Shown here: positions 2,800 through 58,807 of the stretch, piece by piece | How positions within the stretch are numbered: position 1 is the first letter of the stretch | How the letters are laid out: every line of letters begins with the position of its first letter | NCBI GenBank assembly: GCA_000437215.1 | Contig: FR898645.1 | Span: forward strand, 9,979 to 73,978 | Length of the DNA stretch: 64,000 bases | DNA from: Clostridium sp. CAG:440 | Lineage (GTDB): Bacteria; Bacillota; Clostridia; TANB77; CAG-508 | Direction: 5' to 3' | The notes under the pieces: model-generated | The model's input: the letters and a program-made list of their open reading frames with translations, nothing else | Database searches by the model: none | Told to the model about the DNA's origin: nothing | Translations under genes and position numbers: made by a program

Positions 2800-5164
2800 T
2801 TAATTAATATCAAATTTTAGTTCATTATCTACAAAATTAACATTAACATTTTGTCCGTCAATAATTTCACCTTTTAAAATACGTTCAGATATTTCATCTT
2901 CAAGGTATCTTTGTATAGCTCTTCTTAAAGGTCTTGCACCAAATTTGATATTTGTTCCTTTTTCTAGTAAGTATTTTTTTGCATCATTTGAGATATGCAT
3001 TGTAATATCTTTGTCTTTTAGAGCTTTTATTGTATCATTAAGCATTAAGTCAACAATTTGCAATAATTCATTTTGGGTTAATGAGTCAAATACAACAACT
3101 TCATCTACTCTGTTTAAAAATTCTGGTCTAAATACTTCTTTTAAACTATCTTCAATTTTTCCTTTGTCAACTGTTTGTTTTCCAAAACCAATTGAATTAT
3201 TATTTAAATTAGAACCAGCATTTGATGTCATAATAATTATAGTATTTGAGAAACTTACTGTATTTCCTTGAGAGTCTGTAAGTTTTCCGTCATCTAAAAC
3301 TTGAAGTAAAATATTAAATACATCTGGATGTGCTTTTTCAATTTCATCAAAAAGTATAATAGAATAAGGTTTCCTTTTTACTTTATCTGTTAATTGACCA
3401 GCATCATCATAGCCAACATAACCTGGAGGTGCACCTATTAATTTTGATGTAGAGTGGCTTTCCATGTATTCAGACATATCAACTCTAATTATAGAATCTT
3501 CAGAGCCGAACATTTCATATGCTAATGATTTTGCAAGTTCAGTTTTACCAACACCTGTAGGTCCAACAAAAATAAATGATGGTGGCCTTTTGGTACTTTG
3601 AAGTCCTGCACGATTTCTTCTAATTGCACGAGAGACAGCATTTACGGCTTCTTCTTGGCCAATAACTCTTTTATGAAGATTTGTTTCTAAATTTAAAAGT
3701 TTTTGTGTTTCAGCTTCTGTTATTTTTTTAACTGGAATTTTTGTCCAACTTTCAATAACTGAGGCTATATCTTGAACAGTTATACTTTTTAATTTCATTT
3801 TGCTATTCATTTTATCTATTTTTTCTATTAATTGACATTCTTTTGTTTTTAAATCTGCTGCTTTTTGATAATCTTCTGTAGAGTCTGCAGCAATAACTTC
3901 TTCTTTTTGAGCTTGAATATTTTTTAATTCTTGTTTTAATATTTCTAATTTAAATAAATCTTTGTTTTCTAAATTTTTTCTAGAACATGCTTCGTCTAAA
4001 ATATCAATTGCTTTATCTGGTAAGAATCTATCATGAATATATTTTTCTGACATTATAACTGTTTGCTTAATAACATCAGATGAAATTTTTACTTTATGGT
4101 ATTCTTCATAATATTTTTTTATTCCTTCCAAAATTACAATAGAATCTTCTATATTTGGTTCTTCTACTAATACTTGTTGGAAACGTCTTTCTAATGCTGT
4201 ATCTTTTTCAATATATTTTCTGTATTCTTTAAGAGTAGTTGTTCCAATTAACTGTATTTCTCCATTTGAAAGGGAAGGTTTTAAAATATTTGCGGCATTC
4301 ATAGAATGTTCGCCATCTCCAGCACCAATTATATTATGAATTTCATCTATAACTAAAATAATGTTACCATATTCTTTACATTCATCAATAATTCCTTTCA
4401 TTCTTGACTCAAATTGTCCTCTAAATTGTGTTCCAGCAATTACTGCTGTCATATCTAATAAATAAACTTCTTTGTTTAAAAGCTTAGCTGGAACATTTTG
4501 GTTTGCAATTTTAATTGCTAAGCCTTGGGCAATTGCAGTTTTACCAACTCCTGGTTCACCAATTAAACATGGATTATTTTTTGAACGTCTATTTAAAATT
4601 TGTATAATTCTTTGTATTTCTTTATCTCTGCCAATTACAATATCTAATTCGTTGTTTTTGGCTTTTTGAGTTAAGTTAGTGCCATAAGTATCTAAATATT
4701 TTTTCTTTTTTGATTGTTTGTTGTTTTTCTTTTTTTCTACTTTTACTTTTTTTCTGCCAGTGTTATCAGAAGAAGTTTCACTTCCGATTAGATCCAAACA
4801 TATTTGAAAATATTGAACCAAGTGGAATAGCGGCTCCTGCAATTTTTGGAGCATCTTCATCATCACTATCTTCGTCTTGAGTATTAAATGTAATTGCACC
4901 ATCCATATTTTCAATATCTTCTAAATTTATATTTTCTGCTAAATCTTTAAAAACTGTTTCTAATTGTTTTGACATATCATTTAAATTAATTTTATCTTTA
5001 TTTAGTAAATCACTTTGTTTTGATAATACATCTAATGGATTAATGCCTTTTTTCTTAGCACAGTCATAGCATAACCCTTCCATGGTTTCTTTGCCATTTT
5101 CTACTTTATTATAAAAAAGTATAGCTGCATTTTTTTTGCATTCTGAACATAACATACTTTTCAT
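2800..5164 (-). CDS. ClpA/ClpB/ClpC-family double-AAA+ ATPase with an N-terminal CxxC..CxxC zinc ribbon. The frame is broken at in-frame CGG 4786-4784.
   Basis: Two Walker A motifs, GEPGVGKTAIAQGLA and GPTGVGKTELAKSLA, with a coiled-coil middle region. The N-terminus is MKSMLCSECKK..LCYDCAKKKG. ORFs 4778..5164 and 2800..4914 join as ..SNMFGSN then GSETSSDNTGRKK. Confidence 0.85.
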
Positions 5165-7731: not shown

Positions 7732-8222
7732 TGAAAGTAAAAAACAATAAAGGAATAACATTAATTGCACTAACAATTACAATAATTATATTATTAATTT
7801 TAGCATCAATAACAATATATAGTGGGAAAGAAAGTATAAAAAAAGCTCAGTTAGAAAGCTTAAAAACTAATATGCTTTTAATTAAAGCAAAAGCAAAAGA
7901 ATATGTAGAACAAGCAAGTTTTAAAAATGGAGTAAATAAAAGTGAAATTTCAGAAGAGGCAAAAAATGAGCTAAAAGGTAAAGAAGCAAATGCAAGTGAT
8001 TATTCAAAGCAAAATATTACAATAAATGGAGGAGAAATTTTATATAAACTTACTTCAGATAATCTAAAAGAAATGGGATTAAAAGATGTTAAATTAGGAA
8101 GTAATGAAGAATATTTAGTAAAATATAATATAAAAGATGTGACTGTAGAAGTGTATAATACAAGTGGTTATGAAAATAATGGAACTACAGTTTATTCATT
8201 GTCTGAATTAGAAAAAATATAA
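7732..8222 (+). CDS. Prepilin-like protein (class III signal-like N-terminus, Ala at +5)
   Basis: MKVKNNKG/ITLIALTITIIILLILA has the same N-terminal pattern as the pilin at 53687. RBS is AAAGGAAGAG. Confidence 0.6.
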
Positions 8223-16254: not shown

Positions 16255-16539
16255 ATGCAAGAGGAATTTTTAAAAGAAAATAAAATTATAGAAAAAACAG
16301 AAATAGAAAAGGAAGAGGAATTGATAATTAATATATTGAAAACAAAAAGAGAGCTAAATGTAGCAAGACAAAATTTTGAATATGCACAAGGTGATTTAAT
16401 TGATTATTACTCATATCAAATAAAAGCAAATCAATCAAAATTAGATTATTTAATAAAATTAGCAAAGAAAAAAGGAATTATTGTTGATATAATTTCAGAT
16501 GCAAAATTTAGAATAGAACAAGAAAATAAAGCTGTTTAA
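16255..16539 (+). CDS. YaaL/DUF2508-family protein
   Basis: 94-aa coiled protein (LNVARQNFEYAQGDLIDYYSYQIKANQSKLDYLIKLAKKKG). It lies immediately upstream of bofA, as in the Bacillus yaaL-bofA pair. Confidence 0.6.
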   Translation: MQEEFLKENKIIEKTEIEKEEELIINILKTKRELNVARQNFEYAQGDLIDYYSYQIKANQSKLDYLIKLAKKKGIIVDIISDAKFRIEQENKAV

Positions 16540-16639
16540 TGGAATATTTGTCCATATTTAAACATAAAAATTGTAATAAATAATTAATTAAATATATAAA
16601 ATTTATTATTTTACAAAATTTGTGTTTAAGGAGCGTTTT

Positions 16640-16900
16640 ATGGATTATAATATTTTAACATATTTGGCATGTATTTGTTTTTTATTCTTATTTGGAAGAA
16701 TATTTATAGTTCCTATAAAAAAAGTTTTAAAATTGGTTGTTAATTCTATTTTAGGTGGGGCAATCATTTATATTATAAATCTAATAGGGAATAGTTTTAA
16801 TTTTCATATTGGACTTAATTTTTTTACAAGCATTTTAATTGGAATACTAGGAATTCCAGGTGCAGTAGTACTTGTAATATTAAAACTTTTAATAGGATAG
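16640..16900 (+). CDS. bofA: Pro-sigma-K processing inhibitor BofA
   Basis: Two-TM protein, NSILGGAIIYIINLIG..GLNFFTSILIGILGIPGAVVLVILKL. AAGGAG lies 6 nt before ATG 16640. Confidence 0.75.
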   Translation: MDYNILTYLACICFLFLFGRIFIVPIKKVLKLVVNSILGGAIIYIINLIGNSFNFHIGLNFFTSILIGILGIPGAVVLVILKLLIG

Positions 16901-17229
16901 ACATTGGGACGGGGATTTTGTCTTAAGGTTTGCAGCCTGCTATCACCAACTTAAGGTTAAACGGCAATAAATGGTCTATAGCTAGGGATAGATGGCAATA
17001 ATATATTAATTTTTGTACCTTGGTGTCGCAACCAACAAAATTAAAAAATATGCAGGTTGCTCCAATTCGCACTCGTGCAAGCACTCGTTTGATCGCTTAC
17101 GCGGTACTTCAAATTAATATATTATTACCATCCACCCCCTTAAGCCATTGACCATTTATTGCCGTTTAACCTTAAGTTGGTGATAGCAGGCTGCAAACCT
17201 TAAGACAAAATCCCCGTCCCAATGTCTAT
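16897..17229. repeat. 333-bp palindromic element with perfect 80-bp arms (16897-16976 and 17150-17229) around an asymmetric centre
   Basis: The arms are exact reverse complements on manual check. They include the TAG stops of both convergent genes, bofA and glmS. The outer arm motif GGGACGGGGATTTTGTCTTAAGGTTT is shared with the element at 49065. Confidence 0.9.
17015..17107 (-). other. Conserved GC-rich 93-nt core (copy 1), a candidate structured RNA or recombination site. The strand is given relative to copy 2.
   Basis: It matches the reverse complement of 61449-61545 in three identical blocks (21, 24 and about 30 nt), separated by variable AT-rich loop sequence. Confidence 0.45.
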
Positions 17230-19067
17230 TCTACAGTTACAGATTTTGCAAGGTTTCTTGGTTTATCTACATCAAGACCTTTTTCTTTTGCAATATAATA
17301 TGCAAATAGTTGAAGTGGCACAACAGAAAGTATAGGGGAGATAAAGGTATTTGTTTTAGGTATGCAAATAACCTCATCAAACAATTTTTTATCAATATCT
17401 TGATTTGTAATTACTAATGTTTTAGCGCCACGAGTAATTACTTCTTGTATATTACTTATACTTTTTTCTACTAAGTTTGGATCTGTTAATATGCTAATTA
17501 CAGTAATTCCATTTTCAATTAAGGCGATAGGCCCATGTTTTAATTCTCCTGATGCATAACTTTCAGAATGAATGTAAGAGATTTCTTTTAATTTTAAAGA
17601 TCCTTCCTTGGCAACTGTTTCATCAATACCTCTACCTAAGAAGAAGATATCTTTTTCTTGATATACTTTTTTAGCAAATTCTTTTATATTTGCTGATAAT
17701 TTTAGTGTTTGTTCAATTTTTGCTGGTAATTCTAATATATCTTTTTTAAATGATTCTATAACAGAGTTATCAACATTTTCTAATACTTCTGCAAAGTATA
17801 GTGCAAGTATATTTAATAAAATTACTTGTGAAGTATATGCTTTTGTAGATGCTACTGCGATTTCTGGACCAGCATGTGTATAAATTGAATAATCTGCTTC
17901 TCGTGTAATAGAACTTCCTATAACATTTGATACAGCAATTGTTTTTGCTCCTTTTTCTTTAGAAAGTTTTAATGCTGCAATTGTGTCTGCTGTTTCTCCT
18001 GATTGTGATATAAAAATGCAAAGTGTATTTTTATCTACAAGAGGATCTCTGTATCTAAATTCTGAAGCTATATCTACTTGGGTAGAAATTTTGCATAATT
18101 TTTCTAATATATTTTTTCCTGCAAGTCCTGCATGCATTGCTGTTCCACATGCTACTATATATATTTTATTTATGCTTGATAAATATTTTTTGGTGAATTT
18201 TAATTCATCAAATTCTATTTTTGAATTTTCTGGTAATCTTGAACCAATAGTTTCTCGAATTGCTGTTGGTTGTTCATAAATTTCTTTTAGCATAAAATCT
18301 TCAAAACCATCTTTTTCTGCTGCAGAAGCATTCCATTCTATTGTTTTTATTTCTTTTTTAAATTCTTTTAAATTTTTATCAAAGAATTTAACATCATTTT
18401 TTGATAGTAAAACAAATTCTAAATCGTTTAAAAGATAGAAGTTACGTGTAAAAGAAAGTATTGCAGGAATGTCTGATGAAATATAGTTTTCATCTTGGCA
18501 TGTTCCAATAACCAATGGGCTATCTTTTCTAACTACAATCATATTTTCTGGGTAATATTTAGAAATTACTTCAATTGCAAAGCTTCCTTTTAAATCTAAA
18601 CATGTATTTTTTACAGCTCTTAAAAGTTTTTGCTCATCATTATTTGTATCTTTTGAATAATAATAATGAATTAAATTAGGTATAACTTCTGTGTCTGTGT
18701 CAGAATAGAATTTATAATTTTTATCATTTAAAAATTTTCTAAGTTCATTATAGTTTTCAATTATTCCATTATGAACAACACTAAATGATTTAGAATTGTC
18801 CATATGTGGATGAGAATTTTCTTTAGATGGTTTTCCATGTGTAGCCCATCTTGTATGAGCAATACCAATAGTACCTTCTAATTTATCAATTCCATTTATT
18901 TCATTTAAATTTTTGACTCTTCCTTTATCTTTCATAACAGATAAGCCTTCTTTTTCTATTGTTGAAATACCAGCAGAGTCATAACCTCTGTATTCCAATC
19001 TTAAAAGTCCATTAATTAAAATAGGTGTTGCTTTTTTATTACCTATATAACCTACAATTCCACACAT
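17226..19067 (-). CDS. glmS: Glutamine--fructose-6-phosphate aminotransferase
   Basis: Begins MCGIVGYIG and contains two SIS domains; ends KSVTVE. Confidence 0.95.
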   Translation of the reverse strand: MCGIVGYIGNKKATPILINGLLRLEYRGYDSAGISTIEKEGLSVMKDKGRVKNLNEINGIDKLEGTIGIAHTRWATHGKPSKENSHPHMDNSKSFSVVHNGIIENYNELRKFLNDKNYKFYSDTDTEVIPNLIHYYYSKDTNNDEQKLLRAVKNTCLDLKGSFAIEVISKYYPENMIVVRKDSPLVIGTCQDENYISSDIPAILSFTRNFYLLNDLEFVLLSKNDVKFFDKNLKEFKKEIKTIEWNASAAEKDGFEDFMLKEIYEQPTAIRETIGSRLPENSKIEFDELKFTKKYLSSINKIYIVACGTAMHAGLAGKNILEKLCKISTQVDIASEFRYRDPLVDKNTLCIFISQSGETADTIAALKLSKEKGAKTIAVSNVIGSSITREADYSIYTHAGPEIAVASTKAYTSQVILLNILALYFAEVLENVDNSVIESFKKDILELPAKIEQTLKLSANIKEFAKKVYQEKDIFFLGRGIDETVAKEGSLKLKEISYIHSESYASGELKHGPIALIENGITVISILTDPNLVEKSISNIQEVITRGAKTLVITNQDIDKKLFDEVICIPKTNTFISPILSVVPLQLFAYYIAKEKGLDVDKPRNLAKSVTVE

Positions 19068-19089: not shown

Positions 19090-19292
19090 AACGTGCGATA
19101 AATTTGGCAAATGTTATATTTTGGGAATTGAAAGCATGTAAATAAAAGCTATATACTAATTTTTGTTGCAATATTACTATTGTTTTTTAATTAGTACTAT
19201 GGTTTAGCCAAAACCACTAGAGCATCCGCCGAATATTTCGATAACTCTAGACCTCGTCAACACTATTTTTATAAGTGTCCAGGCGCTTAATA
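19090..19292 (-). ncRNA. glmS_ribozyme: glmS ribozyme/riboswitch in the glmS 5' leader
   Basis: The minus strand reads AAGCGCCTGGAC..GTTGACGAGGTCTAGAGTTATCGAAATATTCGGCGGATGCTCTAGTGG. This matches the conserved AGCGCC cleavage region, GACGAGG and CGGCGGAUGC core. The 3' limit is approximate. Confidence 0.85.
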
Positions 19293-19344
19293 AATAAAAC
19301 TCCTTTCTTTTATTTTTTTATTTACCTTTCTTTCAATTTATGGT

Positions 19345-29910: not shown

Positions 29911-31096
29911 ATGCTAATAAAAGTAATTTTAAGTTATATTTTAGGTTATGTAAAAATAGCAGTAGAGGGCTATTATTTGGAAAGATTTATTAATATTTGT
30001 AATAGTAAAAAAATTACAATATGGAATTTAAAAAAAGATAAAAATGTTAAATTATATTTAAATGTTAGAATTCAAGATTTTAAAACAATAACTAAAATTG
30101 CTAAAAAAACAGGGTGTAAAGTAAAAATAAGTAAAAAGTGTGGTTTACCATTTTTTATGAATAGATACAAAAAAAGAAAAATATTTGCATTTTTTTTAGG
30201 TATAATTATAGTACTTACTATAGTTAGTTCTAACTTCATATGGAATGTAGAAATTAGAGAAGAAGATGGAAAAAATATAGAAAATTTAGAGCAGGATTTA
30301 GAAGAAAATGGACTAAAGGTTGGAGAATTAAAATCAAAAGTAGACACAAAAGGAATAATAAATAAAATACGATTAAAAAGAGCAGACATAGCATGGATGG
30401 GAATAGAGCTAAAAGGAACAAACGCAATAGTAAAAGTAATAAAGGCAGATGAAAAACCAGAAATTATAAATGAAGAAAATTATTGTAATATAGTTTCTAA
30501 TAAAGTTGGAGTAATAACAAAAATAAATGCTCAAAATGGAACTGCAAATGTAAAAGTAGGAGACACTGTAAATGTTGGAACAACTTTAATTAATCGGGTG
30601 GATGGAAGGAAAATACACAGGAATTAGGTATGTACATGCAAAAGGAGAAATAGAGGCAAAAGTATGGTATACCAAAAACCAAAAAGTGTACTTTAAACAA
30701 ATAAAAAAAGAAGAAACAGGAGAGCAAGAAAATAAGTATGGAATAAAAATAAATAATTTTGAAATAAATTTTAATAAAAAGCTTTCAAAATTTAAAATTT
30801 ATGATACAATAAACGCAGAAAAAAAGTTTAAAATATTTTCAGATTTTTATTTACCAATTTCAATTACAAAAACAACGTATAAAGAGCAAAAAAATGTAGA
30901 AAAGACGTATCAAGTAGAAGAAGCAAAAGAACAAGGAATAAAAGAATTGGAAGAAAGTATAGAAAAAGAAATTGGAAATAAACAAAACATTTTAAACAAA
31001 AATGTAAATGTCTATCAAAATGAGGACAGTATAGATGTTTATGTTACATATGAAGTACTTGAAAATATAGGCACTAAGGAAAAAATTGTATTTTAG
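29911..31096 (+). CDS. yqfD: Sporulation protein YqfD. The frame is broken at in-frame CGG 30595-30597.
   Basis: Begins MLIKVILSYILGYVKIAVEGYYLERFINIC. ORFs 29911..30627 and 30602..31096 join as ..VGTTLIN then GWMEGKYTGIRYVHAKGEIEAKVWY. Confidence 0.85.
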
Positions 31097-53686: not shown

Positions 53687-54121
53687 ATGTTCAAAGAACA
53701 AAAAGGTGTTACACTAATTGCATTAGTTATCACAATCATCGTATTATTAATTTTAGCAGGGGTATCAATTGCAATGCTAACAGGTGACAATGGTATATTA
53801 ACAAAAGCATCAAGCTCAAATGAAACAAATTCTATAGCACAAATTAAAGAAGACGTTTCTTTAGCTGTATCTGAAATAATGGCTAATAAAGCAGATCCAA
53901 CATATAATGGTAATGAATCTACTTTAAGTATAAAAAATATTGCAACAATAGCTGCAAAAAATGATGCATCATTAACAATTTCAACAACTGGTCTTGCTGA
54001 AACAGAAATAACTGAAGCTGCAACATTTGATGTTACTGTTAACAAAATAACTTATACAGTAACTTATACACCAAAAACAGCAAGTACTGCTTCAAAAATT
54101 GATGTAGTAAAAAAATCATAA
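53687..54121 (+). CDS. pilA: Type IV (pre)pilin, probable major subunit, Ala at position +5
   Basis: MFKEQKG/VTLIALVITIIVLLILAGVSIAMLTG, with a strong RBS AAAGGAGG. A stable hairpin follows at 54137-54168. Confidence 0.7.
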   Translation: MFKEQKGVTLIALVITIIVLLILAGVSIAMLTGDNGILTKASSSNETNSIAQIKEDVSLAVSEIMANKADPTYNGNESTLSIKNIATIAAKNDASLTISTTGLAETEITEAATFDVTVNKITYTVTYTPKTASTASKIDVVKKS

Positions 54122-54187: not shown

Positions 54188-55003
54188 ATGGAAACAATAA
54201 TATATATAATAATATTTTTAATAGGAGCAATGTTTGGAAGTTTTTTTACACTTGCCGTATATAGAATTCCAAGAAGAGAAGACATAACACACACAAGATC
54301 ATACTGTCCTAAATGTAATCACAAATTAGGATTTTTTGACATGTTTCCAATTTTAAGCTATATAATTTTAGGTGGTAAATGTAGATATTGTAAAGAAAAG
54401 ATAAGACCTAGGTATTTAATATTAGAAATACTATCTGGGTTAATTTTTGTATCTATATTTTACTTAATGAAAATTGATATATATAACATAAAAATAGAAC
54501 AGGTAGCAGAATATTGCTTTATGGTACTATATTTATCATTTTTGTTTATAATTGCAGGAATAGATAAAGAACAAAGAAAAATAGAAAAACCAGTACTTAC
54601 ATATGGAATAATTATATCAATTATATATATAGCATATCTATGCATAGTAGAAAAAGCTAATATATATAGATATGTTATATATCTTGTTTTTTACGTATTA
54701 ATATTAATTTTAGATACAATATCACTAAAAAAATATGCAAAAAGCAAATATATAAATGGAATATTATTAATGATAATTGTAATTGCAATTTTTACAGGAG
54801 AATATGTAACAATAAATACAATAGCATTTACATCACTTACAGTTGCAATATATATATTGTTAAATAAATTAAAACAAAGAAGAAATAAAAGCTTAAAAAC
54901 AGACAAACAAATTTGGAAAGATTTAAAAATAGGATTTTACTTAAGTATTACAAATGTATTAACAATACTATATGTATTATTATATAACAATTTTATAGTA
55001 TAG
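54188..55003 (+). CDS. pilD: Prepilin peptidase (A24 family)
   Basis: Contains FGSFFTLAVYRIP, CPKCNHKL..CRYCKEKI and IAGIDKEQRKI. Polytopic. Confidence 0.85.
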   Translation: METIIYIIIFLIGAMFGSFFTLAVYRIPRREDITHTRSYCPKCNHKLGFFDMFPILSYIILGGKCRYCKEKIRPRYLILEILSGLIFVSIFYLMKIDIYNIKIEQVAEYCFMVLYLSFLFIIAGIDKEQRKIEKPVLTYGIIISIIYIAYLCIVEKANIYRYVIYLVFYVLILILDTISLKKYAKSKYINGILLMIIVIAIFTGEYVTINTIAFTSLTVAIYILLNKLKQRRNKSLKTDKQIWKDLKIGFYLSITNVLTILYVLLYNNFIV

Positions 55004-55015
55004 AAAGGGAAAAAA

Positions 55016-55471
55016 ATGAATGTAAAAAGTCAAAAAGGTTTTACAGGAATAGACATAACAATTGCAATAATTGTAATTACATTATTTGTATCAATAATAT
55101 CAGTTGTTTTTTACAACATCACTATATCATCTAAAAAGGTAGAAAGAAAAACAGAAGCAACATATATAGCACAAGATGTTATAGAAAAGATAAAAGCATT
55201 AGACTATGATGAGGCAATAGAAACCCAAGGAGAAGATGCAGTTGATATTGGTTCATATAAAAATAATAATAAATTAATTATAGACAATAAAGAATATGAC
55301 TCAGCTTATACTATAGAAATAAAAGTAAAAAAATATGTTCCAAATTCTAATGGACAAGAAAACAATGATTCAAACGATTTAGTAAAAATAGTAAATGTAA
55401 ATGTTTTATATAAAATAGGAAAAGAAGTAGAAAACGTGGAGTTAACAACGACAATAGTTAGAAATAGGTAG
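55016..55471 (+). CDS. Minor pilin-like protein
   Basis: MNVKSQKG/FTGIDITIAIIVITLF (Asp at +5). Confidence 0.5.
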   Translation: MNVKSQKGFTGIDITIAIIVITLFVSIISVVFYNITISSKKVERKTEATYIAQDVIEKIKALDYDEAIETQGEDAVDIGSYKNNNKLIIDNKEYDSAYTIEIKVKKYVPNSNGQENNDSNDLVKIVNVNVLYKIGKEVENVELTTTIVRNR

Positions 55472-55486
55472 AAAGGACGTTTTAAT

Positions 55487-55942
55487 ATGAGGTCAGAAAA
55501 AGGTGTAACATTAACATCATTAATTATATATGTGATTGCGATGTTAATAGCTATTACAATCATTTCAATAATGACAGGGTATTTTTATAAAAATATAGAC
55601 GTATCAACAGAAAAATATTCTTATTTAGGGGAATACACAAGATTTAATAGTTATTTTTCTGAAGAAGTTAACAAAGAAGGCAATAAAATCTTAGAAGTAG
55701 TAAGCTTTACAAATGCAAATGAACAAGACAAGAACAAACAAAGATATGTTGCATTTTCTAGTAAAAATCAATACACATATATTCCAGAAAATAAAGCAAT
55801 TTATCAAAATAATGTAAAAATTGCAAGTGGAGTTGACAATTGTGAATTTACAGAAAAAATAGAAAATGGAAAAGAAGCAATTGAAGTAAAATTAAAAATT
55901 GGCGATTTAGAAAAAAAAGTTACCTATATTTTAAAAAAATAG
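55487..55942 (+). CDS. Minor pilin-like protein
   Basis: MRSEKG/VTLTSLIIYVIAMLIA (Ser at +5). Confidence 0.5.
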   Translation: MRSEKGVTLTSLIIYVIAMLIAITIISIMTGYFYKNIDVSTEKYSYLGEYTRFNSYFSEEVNKEGNKILEVVSFTNANEQDKNKQRYVAFSSKNQYTYIPENKAIYQNNVKIASGVDNCEFTEKIENGKEAIEVKLKIGDLEKKVTYILKK

Positions 55943-56032
55943 TAAATAAAGGTAATTTATAAAAGTTTAACAAAAATATCTAGAAATATTGTATAATAAT
56001 ATAGAGCACGTAAGAAAAAAGGAGGAAACAAA

Positions 56033-57673
56033 ATGGATGTAAGAAGAAGACAACCAATGGGGGTTGAATTAGTAAAAAGAGGAATTGTAAATGAAGAAGC
56101 AATAGAAGAGGCTTTAACATACCAAAGAGAACATCCAAACCAAAAAATTGGAGATATATTATATATATTAGGATTAGCAGAGCCTAAAACATTAATAGAG
56201 GCAATAGGTGAAATATTGGGAACAAAAGGTATATTATTAAATTCTGAAAGCATAAAAATAAATTTAACAGATTATATTTCATTAGATATTGCTCAAAAAA
56301 ATAAAGCAGTACCATTTGAGGTTTCTTCAGGAAAAATTAAAGTTTGCTTTGCAAATACAGTTAATAATAGAGCAATGGAAACAATAAGAATGTTATTTTT
56401 AAATAAAGGGCTTGTTATGGAAAGTTATGTTACATTTGAAAATGACATAGAAAAATACTTGCGTTCATTGGAAGGTGAGGCAGGTAAGGCCGGAATAGAG
56501 GTTGCAGACCAAGGAGGAACAATTACATCACTTGTTGATAGCATAATAAAAACTGGAATGGTAAAAAGAGCAAGTGATATACACATAGAACCATTAGAAA
56601 ATGAAGTAAGAGTAAGATACAGAATAGATGGTGAACTTGTAACAGCAGCTACAATAGATAAAGAAAAACAAACACAAATAATAGGAAGATTAAAAGCAAT
56701 ATCTAATATGCATCAAGAAAAACAAGAATCACAAGATGGAAGAATTTTATTATATGATGATTATAATATTCGTGTTTCTTCACAACCAAATGTATATGGT
56801 GAAAAATTTGTTTTAAGGTTATTAAAGAAAAATGCAGATATTAAACAAATATTTGATTTAGGATTTCCAGGAGATGAAAAAACATTAAACAAAAGTGTAA
56901 ATAAAAGAAATAGTATAACAATAATAGCAGCACCAACAGGTGAAGGAAAAACAACTACACTATATAGTATAATAGACTATTTAAATAGACCAGAAATAAA
57001 CATAACAACAATAGAAGATCCAGTAGAAATACGTATACCAGGACTTAACCAAATAGAAATAGACAAAAAATCAACATTTTCAAGTGCATTAAGAACAGTT
57101 TTAAGACAAGACCCAGATGTAATACTTGTAGGAGAAATAAGAGATAGAGAAACAGCAGAAATAGCAATACAAGCAGGACAAACAGGACACTATGTTTTAT
57201 CAACAATACATACAATAGACAGTATAGAAGTAATAAATAGACTAAGAAAAATAGGAGTATCAGATTATGACATAGCCAGTACATTAGCAACATCAATATC
57301 ACAAAGACTTGTTAGGAGATTATGTCATGAATGTAGAAGAGAAAGAGAATTTACAGAAGAAGAAAAACAAATAATAACAAATATTTCTAATAAATATGGT
57401 ATGAATGTTGATTTAAGCAATATAAAAACATATGATGCAATTGGATGTAAACACTGCAATAATACAGGCTATTATGACAGAATAGGTGTATTTGAAGTAT
57501 TGGATTTAGATGATGAAATAAAAGAATTAATAGTAAAAGGTGCTTCTAGTATAGAAATAAGAAATAAAGCATTAGAAAAAAATTATAGACCACTTGCAGT
57601 AGATGGAATTAAAAAAGTGTTAATGGGAATAACAACACTTGAAGAATTAAACAATAAGTTATTGATATTCTAA
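56033..57673 (+). CDS. pilB: Type IV pilus assembly ATPase PilB (GspE family)
   Basis: Contains APTGEGKTTT, VGEIRD and a tetracysteine CHECRRE..CKHCNNTGY. Confidence 0.9.
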   Translation: MDVRRRQPMGVELVKRGIVNEEAIEEALTYQREHPNQKIGDILYILGLAEPKTLIEAIGEILGTKGILLNSESIKINLTDYISLDIAQKNKAVPFEVSSGKIKVCFANTVNNRAMETIRMLFLNKGLVMESYVTFENDIEKYLRSLEGEAGKAGIEVADQGGTITSLVDSIIKTGMVKRASDIHIEPLENEVRVRYRIDGELVTAATIDKEKQTQIIGRLKAISNMHQEKQESQDGRILLYDDYNIRVSSQPNVYGEKFVLRLLKKNADIKQIFDLGFPGDEKTLNKSVNKRNSITIIAAPTGEGKTTTLYSIIDYLNRPEINITTIEDPVEIRIPGLNQIEIDKKSTFSSALRTVLRQDPDVILVGEIRDRETAEIAIQAGQTGHYVLSTIHTIDSIEVINRLRKIGVSDYDIASTLATSISQRLVRRLCHECRREREFTEEEKQIITNISNKYGMNVDLSNIKTYDAIGCKHCNNTGYYDRIGVFEVLDLDDEIKELIVKGASSIEIRNKALEKNYRPLAVDGIKKVLMGITTLEELNNKLLIF

Positions 57674-57693
57674 ACAAAAGAGGAGGAAAATAT

Positions 57694-58794
57694 ATGGACA
57701 TGAATAAAATATTGGATATTGCGTTTGAAAAAGACGCATCTGATATACACCTAATATGTAATAATAAACCAATACTAAGAATTGCAAGAACATTAGTACC
57801 AATAGAAGAAATGGATGTATTAACACCAGACGATATGAATGAAATGTATGATTATTTAGTAATGGGAAACGTAGAAAAAGATGAAGTATTTAATACAACA
57901 AGGAAACTAGATACATCATATGAGTATAAGGGAGTTCGTTTAAGGGTAAATATATCACTTTCAGATGATGTGCCTTTATGTACATTAAGAATTATAAAAA
58001 ATGAATTACCATCATATGAATCACTTGGAGTTCCAGATGTTGTAAGAAGGATGACATATCAACCACAAGGGGTAATGTTAGTTACAGGAAAAACAAACTC
58101 AGGAAAAACAACAACACTAAATGCTTTAATAAATGATATAAATGAGAATCAAAATAGAAAAATATTAACACTAGAAAACCCAGTAGAATATAAGCATCAT
58201 TCTAAAAAATCTTTAATAGTTCAAAAAGAAGTAGGAAAAGGACAAGATGTTTTAACATTTAGCCAAGGAGTTAAAAACTCACTAAGAGAAGACTGTGATA
58301 TACTAGTAATAGGGGAGATTAGAGACAAAGAAACAATGGAAGCTGCTATAGAAATGGCAGAATCTGGACACTTGGTAATAGGAACACTACATACAAAATC
58401 TTGTGCGGAAACAATAGACAGAATGATAAACTTCTATGAAGTAAGAGACCAAGCACAAATAAAATACTTATTATCTTCATTATTAAAACTTGTTGTTTCA
58501 CAAAGATTGTTAAAAGGAACTAATGGAAAACTAGTATTGGTTCCAGAGGTTATGGTTGTTGATAATATAGTTTCTGGAGTAATTAGAAAGGACAAGTTAA
58601 GCGTTTCAGAAATAGAAGATGCAATACAAAGTAACCAAGAAAAGGGAAGTATAGGATTAATAAATTCACTTGCCAAACTATTTGTTGAAGATAAAATTAC
58701 TTTAGCACAGGCTAAAGAACAAATAGAAGAAAAAAATATAGAAACATTAAATAGGACAATTATGCAATTAAAAATAAAAAGAGACATGCATTAA
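57694..58794 (+). CDS. pilT: Type IV pilus retraction ATPase PilT
   Basis: Contains ASDIHL, GKTNSGKTTT, IGEIRD and AESGHLVIGTLHT. Confidence 0.9.
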   Translation: MDMNKILDIAFEKDASDIHLICNNKPILRIARTLVPIEEMDVLTPDDMNEMYDYLVMGNVEKDEVFNTTRKLDTSYEYKGVRLRVNISLSDDVPLCTLRIIKNELPSYESLGVPDVVRRMTYQPQGVMLVTGKTNSGKTTTLNALINDINENQNRKILTLENPVEYKHHSKKSLIVQKEVGKGQDVLTFSQGVKNSLREDCDILVIGEIRDKETMEAAIEMAESGHLVIGTLHTKSCAETIDRMINFYEVRDQAQIKYLLSSLLKLVVSQRLLKGTNGKLVLVPEVMVVDNIVSGVIRKDKLSVSEIEDAIQSNQEKGSIGLINSLAKLFVEDKITLAQAKEQIEEKNIETLNRTIMQLKIKRDMH

Positions 58795-58807
58795 AAGGAG
58801 GTAAAAG

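Follow-up and report, generated by a model that had tools for sequence, protein, structure and literature searches.

A 333-bp palindrome between bofA and glmS of a gut Clostridium as a probable composite of nested mobile repeats around a conserved structured core

We analyzed a 64,000-nt stretch of the genome of Clostridium sp. CAG:440 (contig FR898645.1, positions 9,979 to 73,978), hereafter the window, focusing on the 333-bp palindrome between the genes bofA and glmS, which we call element A; loci and contigs compared with it carry L-numbers. Element A is probably a composite of nested mobile repeats, namely, a doublet resembling a REPIN (two inverted repetitive extragenic palindromic (REP) units forming a hairpin), a small element resembling miniature inverted-repeat transposable elements (MITEs) and a structured core, with arms that would be kept matched by copying from one arm to the other. 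Elements of this kind are known; what is new is the structured centre, the presence of one core in several unrelated termini, the 80–140-nt arms evolving in concert, and the documented growth of the palindromes.

Layered architecture of the palindrome

Direct comparison confirmed that, as stated in a preliminary description of the window, positions 16897-16976 and 17150-17229 are exact reverse complements (80 nt); mismatches follow immediately outside and inside, and when mismatches are permitted, the inverted repeat spans 16893-16983 and 17143-17233 (91 nt, 97%). Both stop codons lie inside the arms, also as described (bofA, TAG at 16898-16900; glmS, TAG at 17228-17226), and the foot of the palindrome at these two codons reads AGGATAG and AGAATAG, respectively. 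The nesting of palindromes noted in the same description is borne out by an inner inverted repeat, I2 (16985-17012 and 17111-17138, 28 nt, 89%), within the 91-nt outer repeat. The asymmetric centre (17013-17110) is GC-rich as reported, with 45% G+C against 26% window-wide, but measures 98 nt, not 93 nt. The RNA fold predicted for 16890-17236 has an energy of -209.9 kcal/mol (z = -24). The features of the locus and of the two related palindromes in the window are as follows.

16640-16900, plus strand: bofA, 86 aa, from its translation and from PF07441 on the identical protein; the TAG stop is within the left arm
16897-16976: left perfect arm, 80 nt, exact reverse complement of 17150-17229
16897-16931, plus strand: left outer layer, the 35-nt GC-rich REP-like unit ATAGACATTGGGACGGGGATTTTGTCTTAAGGTTT
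16932-16958, mirrored at 17168-17194: locus-specific inner stem of the REPIN-like hairpin
16959-17012, plus strand: left arm of the nested MITE-like element, with GGCAAT-containing repeats; the mirror, 17111-17167, is imperfect and has indels
17005-17118, plus strand, co-oriented with bofA: conserved structured core, covariance-model match of 104 bits (this copy is itself in the seed alignment)
17150-17229: right perfect arm, 80 nt, exact reverse complement of 16897-16976
17195-17229, minus strand: right outer layer, the inverted REP-like unit, which holds the glmS stop
17226-19067, minus strand: glmS, 613 aa, ending in ...NLAKSVTVE and the stop; the protein matches the GATase and SIS domains of GlmS
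19143-19298, minus strand: glmS ribozyme upstream of glmS (Rfam RF00234, 89.9 bits)
49066-49177: REPIN-like hairpin without a core, formed by the outer unit only (units at 49066-49098 and 49144-49177), just upstream of rsmB (49213)
61314-61680, minus strand: sister element B, with the core at 61438-61556 in 140-nt arms that are 98% complementary and in which the last 50 nt of a ROK-kinase gene are repeated in inverted form

The outer layer would be a REPIN-like inverted pair of the 35-nt unit together with a locus-specific inner stem. The unit ATAGACATTGGGACGGGGATTTTGTCTTAAGGTTT can form a small hairpin by itself (AGACA...TGTCT), and its motif GGGACGGGGATTTTGTCTTAAGGTTT occurs four times in the window (16906, 17195, 49073 and 49144), where shuffled sequences are expected to hold none; the second locus had been recognized in the preliminary description, although its start is at 49066/49073 rather than 49065. 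In the species, the unit is found at three loci, namely, A, 49066-49177 and a locus designated D, and it forms tandem arrays in the relatives L056, L067 and L023. These inverted pairs and arrays of a 35-nt GC-rich unit uphold, for the outer layer, the likeness to REPs and bacterial interspersed mosaic elements (BIMEs) proposed earlier. The stem at 16932-16958 is unlike the matching stretch at locus D and at 49099-49111, yet is perfectly paired within A.

At the apex of the outer hairpin, there would be a MITE-like element of about 210 bp, with arms composed of the GGCAAT-containing repeats. Its arm (16959-17012) is homologous to the arms of element B and to those of another locus of the species, C, which has 62-nt arms, AATGGCAATAAATTGTCAATAGTTCCGGGTTTGGATGGCAATAATATATT. 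The centre is a strand-asymmetric core of about 100 nt, which is closed by the helix P1b and holds the covarying hairpins P2 and P3 together with near-invariant unpaired segments.

The arms of A also contain the palindromic hexamer CTTAAG at 16925-16930, 16950-16955, 17140-17145 and the mirror positions; the same hexamer is present in L022, in L156 and in a plain terminator hairpin of the relative L024.

A covarying core in several unrelated termini

The core of A recurs on the minus strand at 61438-61556, within the different palindrome of element B. The preliminary description missed both this second copy (61314-61680) and the core as the conserved structured part; searches for the repeat, which it had proposed, found core and arm units at other loci of the species, and the core in its relatives. 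The core is present in at least 6 loci of the species, 2 of them in the window and at least 4 elsewhere. Scanning species genomes with a pattern from the 3' part of the core yielded at least 119 stretches, nearly all from the same clade of Clostridia and often several per metagenome-assembled genome (MAG), and an independent scan with a 5' pattern added at least 70 new loci, in which the 3' block GTTTGGTCGCTTACGC is conserved too. Among the loci listed by the two scans, nhmmer detected at least 187 core copies (E <= 1e-6); the family statistics given below cover loci among these listed matches, which come mostly from MAGs of gut Clostridia.

Read 5' to 3', the core consensus starts with a T-rich arm, followed by ATACC (P1b), TTG(T)GTGTC and GCAACC...GGTTGC (P2, with a variable AT-rich loop), and continues with TCC(A)AATCGCA, CTCRC...GYTCG (P3, with a conserved TC/CT internal mismatch), TTTRRTCGCTTACGC, GGTAT (P1b) and an A-rich arm. 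In 60 sequences, 94% of the cells assigned to helices are paired, compared with 21–42% when the partners are slid, and double-sided changes of pairs were counted in 87 cells against 21.9 +/- 7.9 in shuffles, none of 500 of which reached 87. Column 31/67 of P2 is CG in 29 and UA in 29 of these sequences, and column 84/103 of P3 is CG in 44 and UA in 14. The set collected with the independent 5' pattern shows P1b as ACC/GGT, ACT/AGT, AAT/ATT, GCC/GGC, ATC/GAT, GTC/GAC and TAC/GTA; this variety also assigns the G that follows TTACGC to P1b rather than to a P4 stem. Outside the helices, the sequence is nearly invariant, even in segments specified by neither search pattern. All copies have in common the core and about 15–20 nt of an AT-rich inner arm; none is inside an open reading frame (ORF), and most are near the 3' end of a gene.

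Searches for known counterparts of the core were negative. At the gathering score, Rfam 15 identified only the glmS ribozyme in the window and no family for the core, and at E <= 10, the element had only spurious matches to long-hairpin miRNAs, far below threshold. The core pattern had 0 matches in viral contigs, on which ground a phage origin was rejected; blastn against PLSDB plasmids returned no match for the core, and an exact 21-mer scan of species genomes, a set of representatives that does not include the source species, found two unrelated short matches, in Lachnospiraceae. In the literature, the conserved core string was found in no paper in a relevant context, and a full-text query for MITEs and Clostridia came back empty. 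A small peptide encoded in the core was rejected as a candidate: the ATG frame of A and B is not conserved, and the consensus reads ATG TAG.

Between co-directional genes, the core is in the sense orientation in 41 cases and antisense in 17. In 129 of 174 loci, G and A are enriched on the sense strand of the core, a preference inseparable from gene orientation, such that GC skew, which we tried as a means of splitting transcription from replication bias, is confounded. We infer that the core folds and that its sense strand is the one read, either as RNA or in the form of single-stranded DNA (ssDNA), with a sequence-specific role on one strand.

The core could, alternatively, be a non-coding or cis-regulatory RNA of the host, with arms that serve its expression or processing and with mobility as a secondary matter. 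The strong covariation, the invariant unpaired bases, the 41:17 sense bias, the position just after stop codons and the lack of an Rfam match are all in keeping with such an RNA, but we consider it rather unlikely, since many copies per genome lie beside unrelated genes and since the core is carried in several unrelated termini, transposon ends with duplications included. Furthermore, the core was lost from element B in L222 without obvious consequence, and it is antisense in about 30% of the co-directional contexts.

The termini that carry the core differ between subfamilies. In subfamilies whose termini are GTTACWRGTCAGCC or GTTACAATTCACAG, 8 bp of the target are directly duplicated: among the matches listed, 14 of the 30 pairs of GTTAC termini have a perfect 8-bp duplication and 5 more agree at 7 of the 8 positions, so that elements of this kind transpose. 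The termini of the GTTAC subfamilies also flank other cargo or almost nothing (L085, L202, L022 and L061), and no full-length insertion sequence (IS) with such termini was found in the loci examined. Elsewhere, the core lies inside the self-hairpin termini GGGACATGGGGACGTAGATAATGTCCC (L096, L099, L111, L116 and L136), within arrays of the 22-nt unit GGGGTCGGTCCC or within short locus-specific palindromes, and the arms range from 20 to 140 nt across the family. The core of L156 is in an element with an IS231-like end, CAATGCTGTCAACTTAAGG, and a 9/10 duplication, which fits CAT-------AA--TAA, the IS231 end consensus used for comparison (PMC2266710); for this locus only, a link to IS231 is a weak lead.

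Separately, we observed that GTTACAATTCACAG termini with 8-bp duplications surround other palindromic cargo at L085:6477-6720, L202:4425-4671, L022:5647-6116 and L061:5607-5692. One of these, the 'type-2' cargo of L085, has at its centre GCCGAGAAATTT and TAGCGA, similar to the RSB and CS-6 boxes found in single-strand origins of the ssoA type (PMC4598088). We rejected a link to plasmids or single-strand origins, as the RSB-like GCCGAGAAATTT and TAGCGA are in reverse order and as the 'type-2' cargo has no blastn match in PLSDB either.

Could the whole palindrome, core included, be a REPIN spread by a REP-associated tyrosine transposase (RAYT, of the Y1 HUH type) encoded elsewhere? The outer unit is short, GC-rich, dispersed and hairpin-forming, in inverted pairs and tandem arrays, and, among the matches listed, 14 of 172 core copies lie between two REP-like GC motifs in inverted orientation, where the background is 0.083 motifs per kb. 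The T3-type termini and locus D contain GTAG; at A, the unit starts as ATAGACA next to bofA, and next to glmS it is preceded by GTAGAATAG. Even so, this origin appears doubtful: most core copies are without REP-like flanks, a Pfam scan of 50 window ORFs found no RAYT or Y1 domain, and other subfamilies have terminal repeats with 8-bp duplications, which are not made by RAYT or IS200-type ssDNA transposition. The same Pfam scan detected no transposase or recombinase/invertase domain, in agreement with the preliminary description, which had seen no transposase or RAYT gene in the window.

Concerted evolution of the arms and the record of strains

A public collection lists the exact BofA sequence in 4044 of its blocks, mostly from human gut metagenomes. 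All 10 contigs examined that encode it carry the palindrome, and a metagenome scan identified 8 further copies of the bofA-glmS locus with A. In 18 other complete assemblies, A measures 333–339 bp, and the orientation of the core is constant (19/19 with the window). The longest perfect run of the arms varies between 40 and 87 nt across strains, and the 80-bp perfection in the window is the state of one strain. At two paired arm positions, we observed compensated haplotypes, C,C/G,G in the window and A,T/A,T in L008, as well as half-compensated intermediates.

In its three layers, locus D, represented by two assemblies (L314 and L329), follows the plan of A. The outer unit of D, TAGACAACGGGACGGGGTTTTTGTCTTAGGCTTT, is about 90% like that of A and its inner arm and core are the same as those of A, whereas the middle stretch is unlike. 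About one third of the arm positions differ between A and D, and in both assemblies the arms of D are 98–99% complementary over 120 nt; likewise, at other loci of the species, the arms are 20–40% different from those of A, each locus having its own arms matched. The contrast between A and D is best read as concerted evolution within each palindrome rather than youth. Of the two options raised in the preliminary description, "recent formation or active maintenance", the second is thus sustained, as arms evolve in concert while loci diverge, and the first is not. Family-wide, arm mismatches are 79 G-T and 76 A-C, without bias, and, with no G-T excess, there is no sign that selection at the RNA level keeps the arms matched.

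Repeated copying between the arms at the DNA level would homogenize them and could lengthen them, a process partly documented in the strains and partly deduced; polymerase template switching or gene conversion between inverted arms are the likely routes. Template switching between the arms of inverted repeats is known to homogenize arms, invert the spacer and expand the arms (PMC8604942, PMC13100816, PMC5941160). Outward growth would be limited by coding sequence and retained only where harmless, which might be why the palindrome ends at two stop codons.

Element B provides a record of such changes. In 12 complete assemblies, among them an NCBI contig of 1.72 Mb and a contig of long-read style, it has the arrangement F-X-C-X'~-R, that is, the 3' end of the ROK gene, a 64-nt arm, the core in sense orientation, an imperfect arm and a flank with a promoter-like TTGACA-17-TAAAAT. 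The allele of the window reads F-X-rc(C)-X'-rc(F end)-R distal: the core is inverted, the arms are perfected and are 68 nt longer, the addition being the final 50 nt of the ROK gene plus 18 nt, copied in inverted orientation, and the promoter-like 33 nt upstream of a gene for a 178-aa protein (61713-62249) are lost, with the junction TTGCAA|ATATTACC. This allele equals F-X-rc(F end-X-C) and would result if, within the arm, the nascent strand switched once to the complementary template and then returned. Homogenization, spacer inversion and arm expansion, the outcomes of template-switch correction of quasipalindromes (PMC8604942, PMC13100816, PMC5941160, PMC7202029), are precisely what separates the window allele of B from the common one, and homogenization also fits the contrast between A and D. 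The known cases mostly involve repeats of about 10–30 nt, whereas here the arms are 80–140 nt long, belong to mobile repeats and extend into a copy of coding sequence. The inverted core of B is found in L219 as well, independently, in a contig that ends before the junction. In L222 (the same contig as L003), the core of B is deleted between ATTGCCA direct repeats, leaving a bare arm hairpin, which shows a route to core-less palindromes such as 49066-49177.

At locus D, five contigs (L308, L312, L318, L322 and L330) have a hybrid with a left arm of the C/B type and a right arm of the D type; compared with L314 and L329, one flank differs, and the core is opposite relative to the shared gene. 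The hybrid looks like the product of recombination between two core copies, a rearrangement that is polymorphic among strains.

Perfect arms could also signify a young insertion, that is, a MITE copy recently transposed from a master whose long terminal repeats were perfect, for which no homogenization would be required. Related subfamilies do transpose, as indicated by their 8-bp duplications, and some strains have perfect runs of 83–87 nt. Nevertheless, we find this improbable: A is fixed in all 18 other assemblies and has accumulated polymorphism, which indicates insertion before the strains diverged, the other loci differ by 20–40% in their arms although each is internally matched, and A has no target duplication.

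An origin as a palindrome-associated transposable element (PATE) derived from IS200/IS605, as considered in the preliminary description, is highly unlikely. The element is rich in palindromes, non-coding and intergenic, and the invariant TTAC in the core bears a resemblance to the target site of IS608. However, PATEs and IS200/IS605 ends are without terminal inverted repeats or target duplications, whereas this family has long inverted termini and its relatives carry 8-bp duplications, the mark of DDE-type cut-and-paste transposition; moreover, the Rfam IS605-orfB and HEARO models do not match. Equally little credence can be given to a programmed switch (inverton) operated by an invertase with a specific site. 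Relative to the 12 complete assemblies, the window and L219 do have the core of B inverted, but A is flipped in 0 of 18 strains, no invertase domain was found in the 50 ORFs scanned, and the flip at B is coupled with the perfection of the arms and a 68-nt inverted duplication of the flank, which is not a recombinase product. Finally, a fold-back artefact of assembly, the scenario named in the preliminary description as refuting, is virtually out of the question: short-read assemblies do break at long palindromes, and most short-read contigs end within element B, but MEGAHIT and assemblers of the SPAdes and long-read styles produced the same A in 18 other samples, within contigs reaching 1.7 Mb, and its repeats recur elsewhere.

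Several observations weigh against the interpretation of A as nested mobile repeats with arms matched by copying and a core acting on one strand. Neither A nor B nor the T3-type copies show a direct target duplication; homogenization of the arms would erase one. The 50 window ORFs scanned include no autonomous transposase or RAYT partner, the loci examined have no full-length IS with matching termini, and the insertion of the inner element into the outer hairpin is read from the layering rather than seen. The core of A, as noted, is not flipped in any of the 18 other strains, and the extended and inverted variant of B is complete in the window only. Regarding RNA function, the excess of G-U over A-C in the core helices is weak, and, the sense-strand bias being inseparable from a replication-strand bias, RNA and lagging-strand ssDNA are both possible. 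As for a role at 3' ends, no terminator-like site or canonical U tract was predicted in 16400-17700.

The bofA-glmS spacer, related systems and implications

The nearest species genomes belong to uncultured Clostridia of the gut, Clostridium sp. CAG:389 among them; their GlmS proteins are no more than 82% identical, and the convergent arrangement of glmS and bofA is retained. Comparing the spacer among relatives, as the preliminary description had recommended, showed that in many of them it is 36–120 nt long and holds a simple hairpin only; in L024, the gap is occupied exactly by an A5-stem-T5 hairpin of 42 nt. In the relatives L022, L023 and L056, glmS is followed immediately by hairpins or arrays of the GC-rich GGGACGGRG motif. 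In L017 (GlmS 82% identical), the same spacer contains a homologous core, in opposite orientation, at 4840-5121.

Because relatives have a plain bidirectional terminator hairpin at the same site, A most likely supplies the 3'-end hairpin of both convergent mRNAs now. It shares its position with these intrinsic terminators but is without a U tract, has a stem about 10 times longer and carries a structured insert at the apex; the giant hairpin is possibly a substrate for a double-strand-specific RNase.

In L017, we also observed that the arm of the element overlaps the 3' end of bofA and that BofA aligns over residues 1-62 of 86 only; the palindrome seems to have replaced the C-terminus of BofA.

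MITEs with long structured hairpins include the Correia elements (CREE) of Neisseria, RUP and BOX of Streptococcus pneumoniae, and bcr1 and MIC231 of the Bacillus cereus group. The family described here shares with them a short, non-coding, intergenic, multi-copy character and terminal inverted repeats, the frequent location at 3' ends of genes, the capacity to fold as RNA and, in related subfamilies, target duplications. In contrast to those elements, however, the conserved part is the asymmetric centre rather than the termini, one core is found in several unrelated termini, the arms are much longer and evolve in concert, and no autonomous partner was identified. The outer layer of A, a GC-rich hairpin unit of about 35 nt that is intergenic and forms inverted doublets and arrays, is akin to REPs, REPINs and BIMEs. 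It differs from these in that the host belongs to the AT-rich Clostridia, no RAYT is seen in the window, and the doublet carries a nested element and is perfect in its arms over 80–120 nt. Nesting of mobile elements in REP repeats is known from IS1397 and ISKpn1, which target REPs. In the family described here, the core with its inner arm would tend to end up at the apex of existing hairpins.

Apart from these elements, the window contains a second small repeat family of 2 copies (41574-41678 and 60286-60390) that are 97% identical and in opposite orientation; each has an asymmetric, GC-rich centre (GTGAAGGGCAAGTGGGGAC...GGGGAGCCCTGG) enclosed by terminal inverted repeats that are AT-rich (AATTATATATTCT...), and there is no Rfam match. 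It further encodes an agr-like quorum-sensing cluster at 23804-26753 (AgrB, 23804-24415; GHKL histidine kinase, 24707-26056; LytTR response regulator, 26043-26753) and a type IV pilus cluster at 54188-60155 (prepilin peptidase A24, two T2SSE ATPases and T2SSF). Three diverged copies of a coding segment resembling a prepilin N-terminus are located at 7740-7816, 53693-53769 and 55025-55101. The sporulation gene yqfD (PF06898) is split into overlapping ORFs, 29911-30627 and 30602-31096, which cover profile positions 2-223 and 228-379, respectively; the split reflects a frameshift, a pseudogene or a sequencing error.

Beyond the composite structure of A, we tentatively suggest that the core might represent an undescribed class of structured nucleic acid, RNA or lagging-strand ssDNA, that serves as the active module of a small element. 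Such an element could settle at the apices of hairpins, be they REP-like doublets, MITEs or terminators, and there bring about its own dispersal or else work as a portable device for 3' ends or regulation, while the palindromes would grow by template switching up to coding sequence. Supported by covariation, present at more than 180 loci and without a counterpart in Rfam, the motif is a candidate for structure-function work on RNA or ssDNA.

The series of strains at A, B and D constitutes a natural record of palindromes being perfected, lengthened, flipped and deleted in a bacterial genome, including, at B, an inverted copy that overwrote a promoter-like flank. Repeats of this type break short-read assemblies and, as the hybrids at D suggest, may recombine, which matters for the quality of MAGs and for structural variation at the strain level. 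The hosts are an abundant, uncultured lineage of human-gut Clostridia, in which A, replacing the shared terminator of glmS and bofA, may alter 3'-end formation of both mRNAs.

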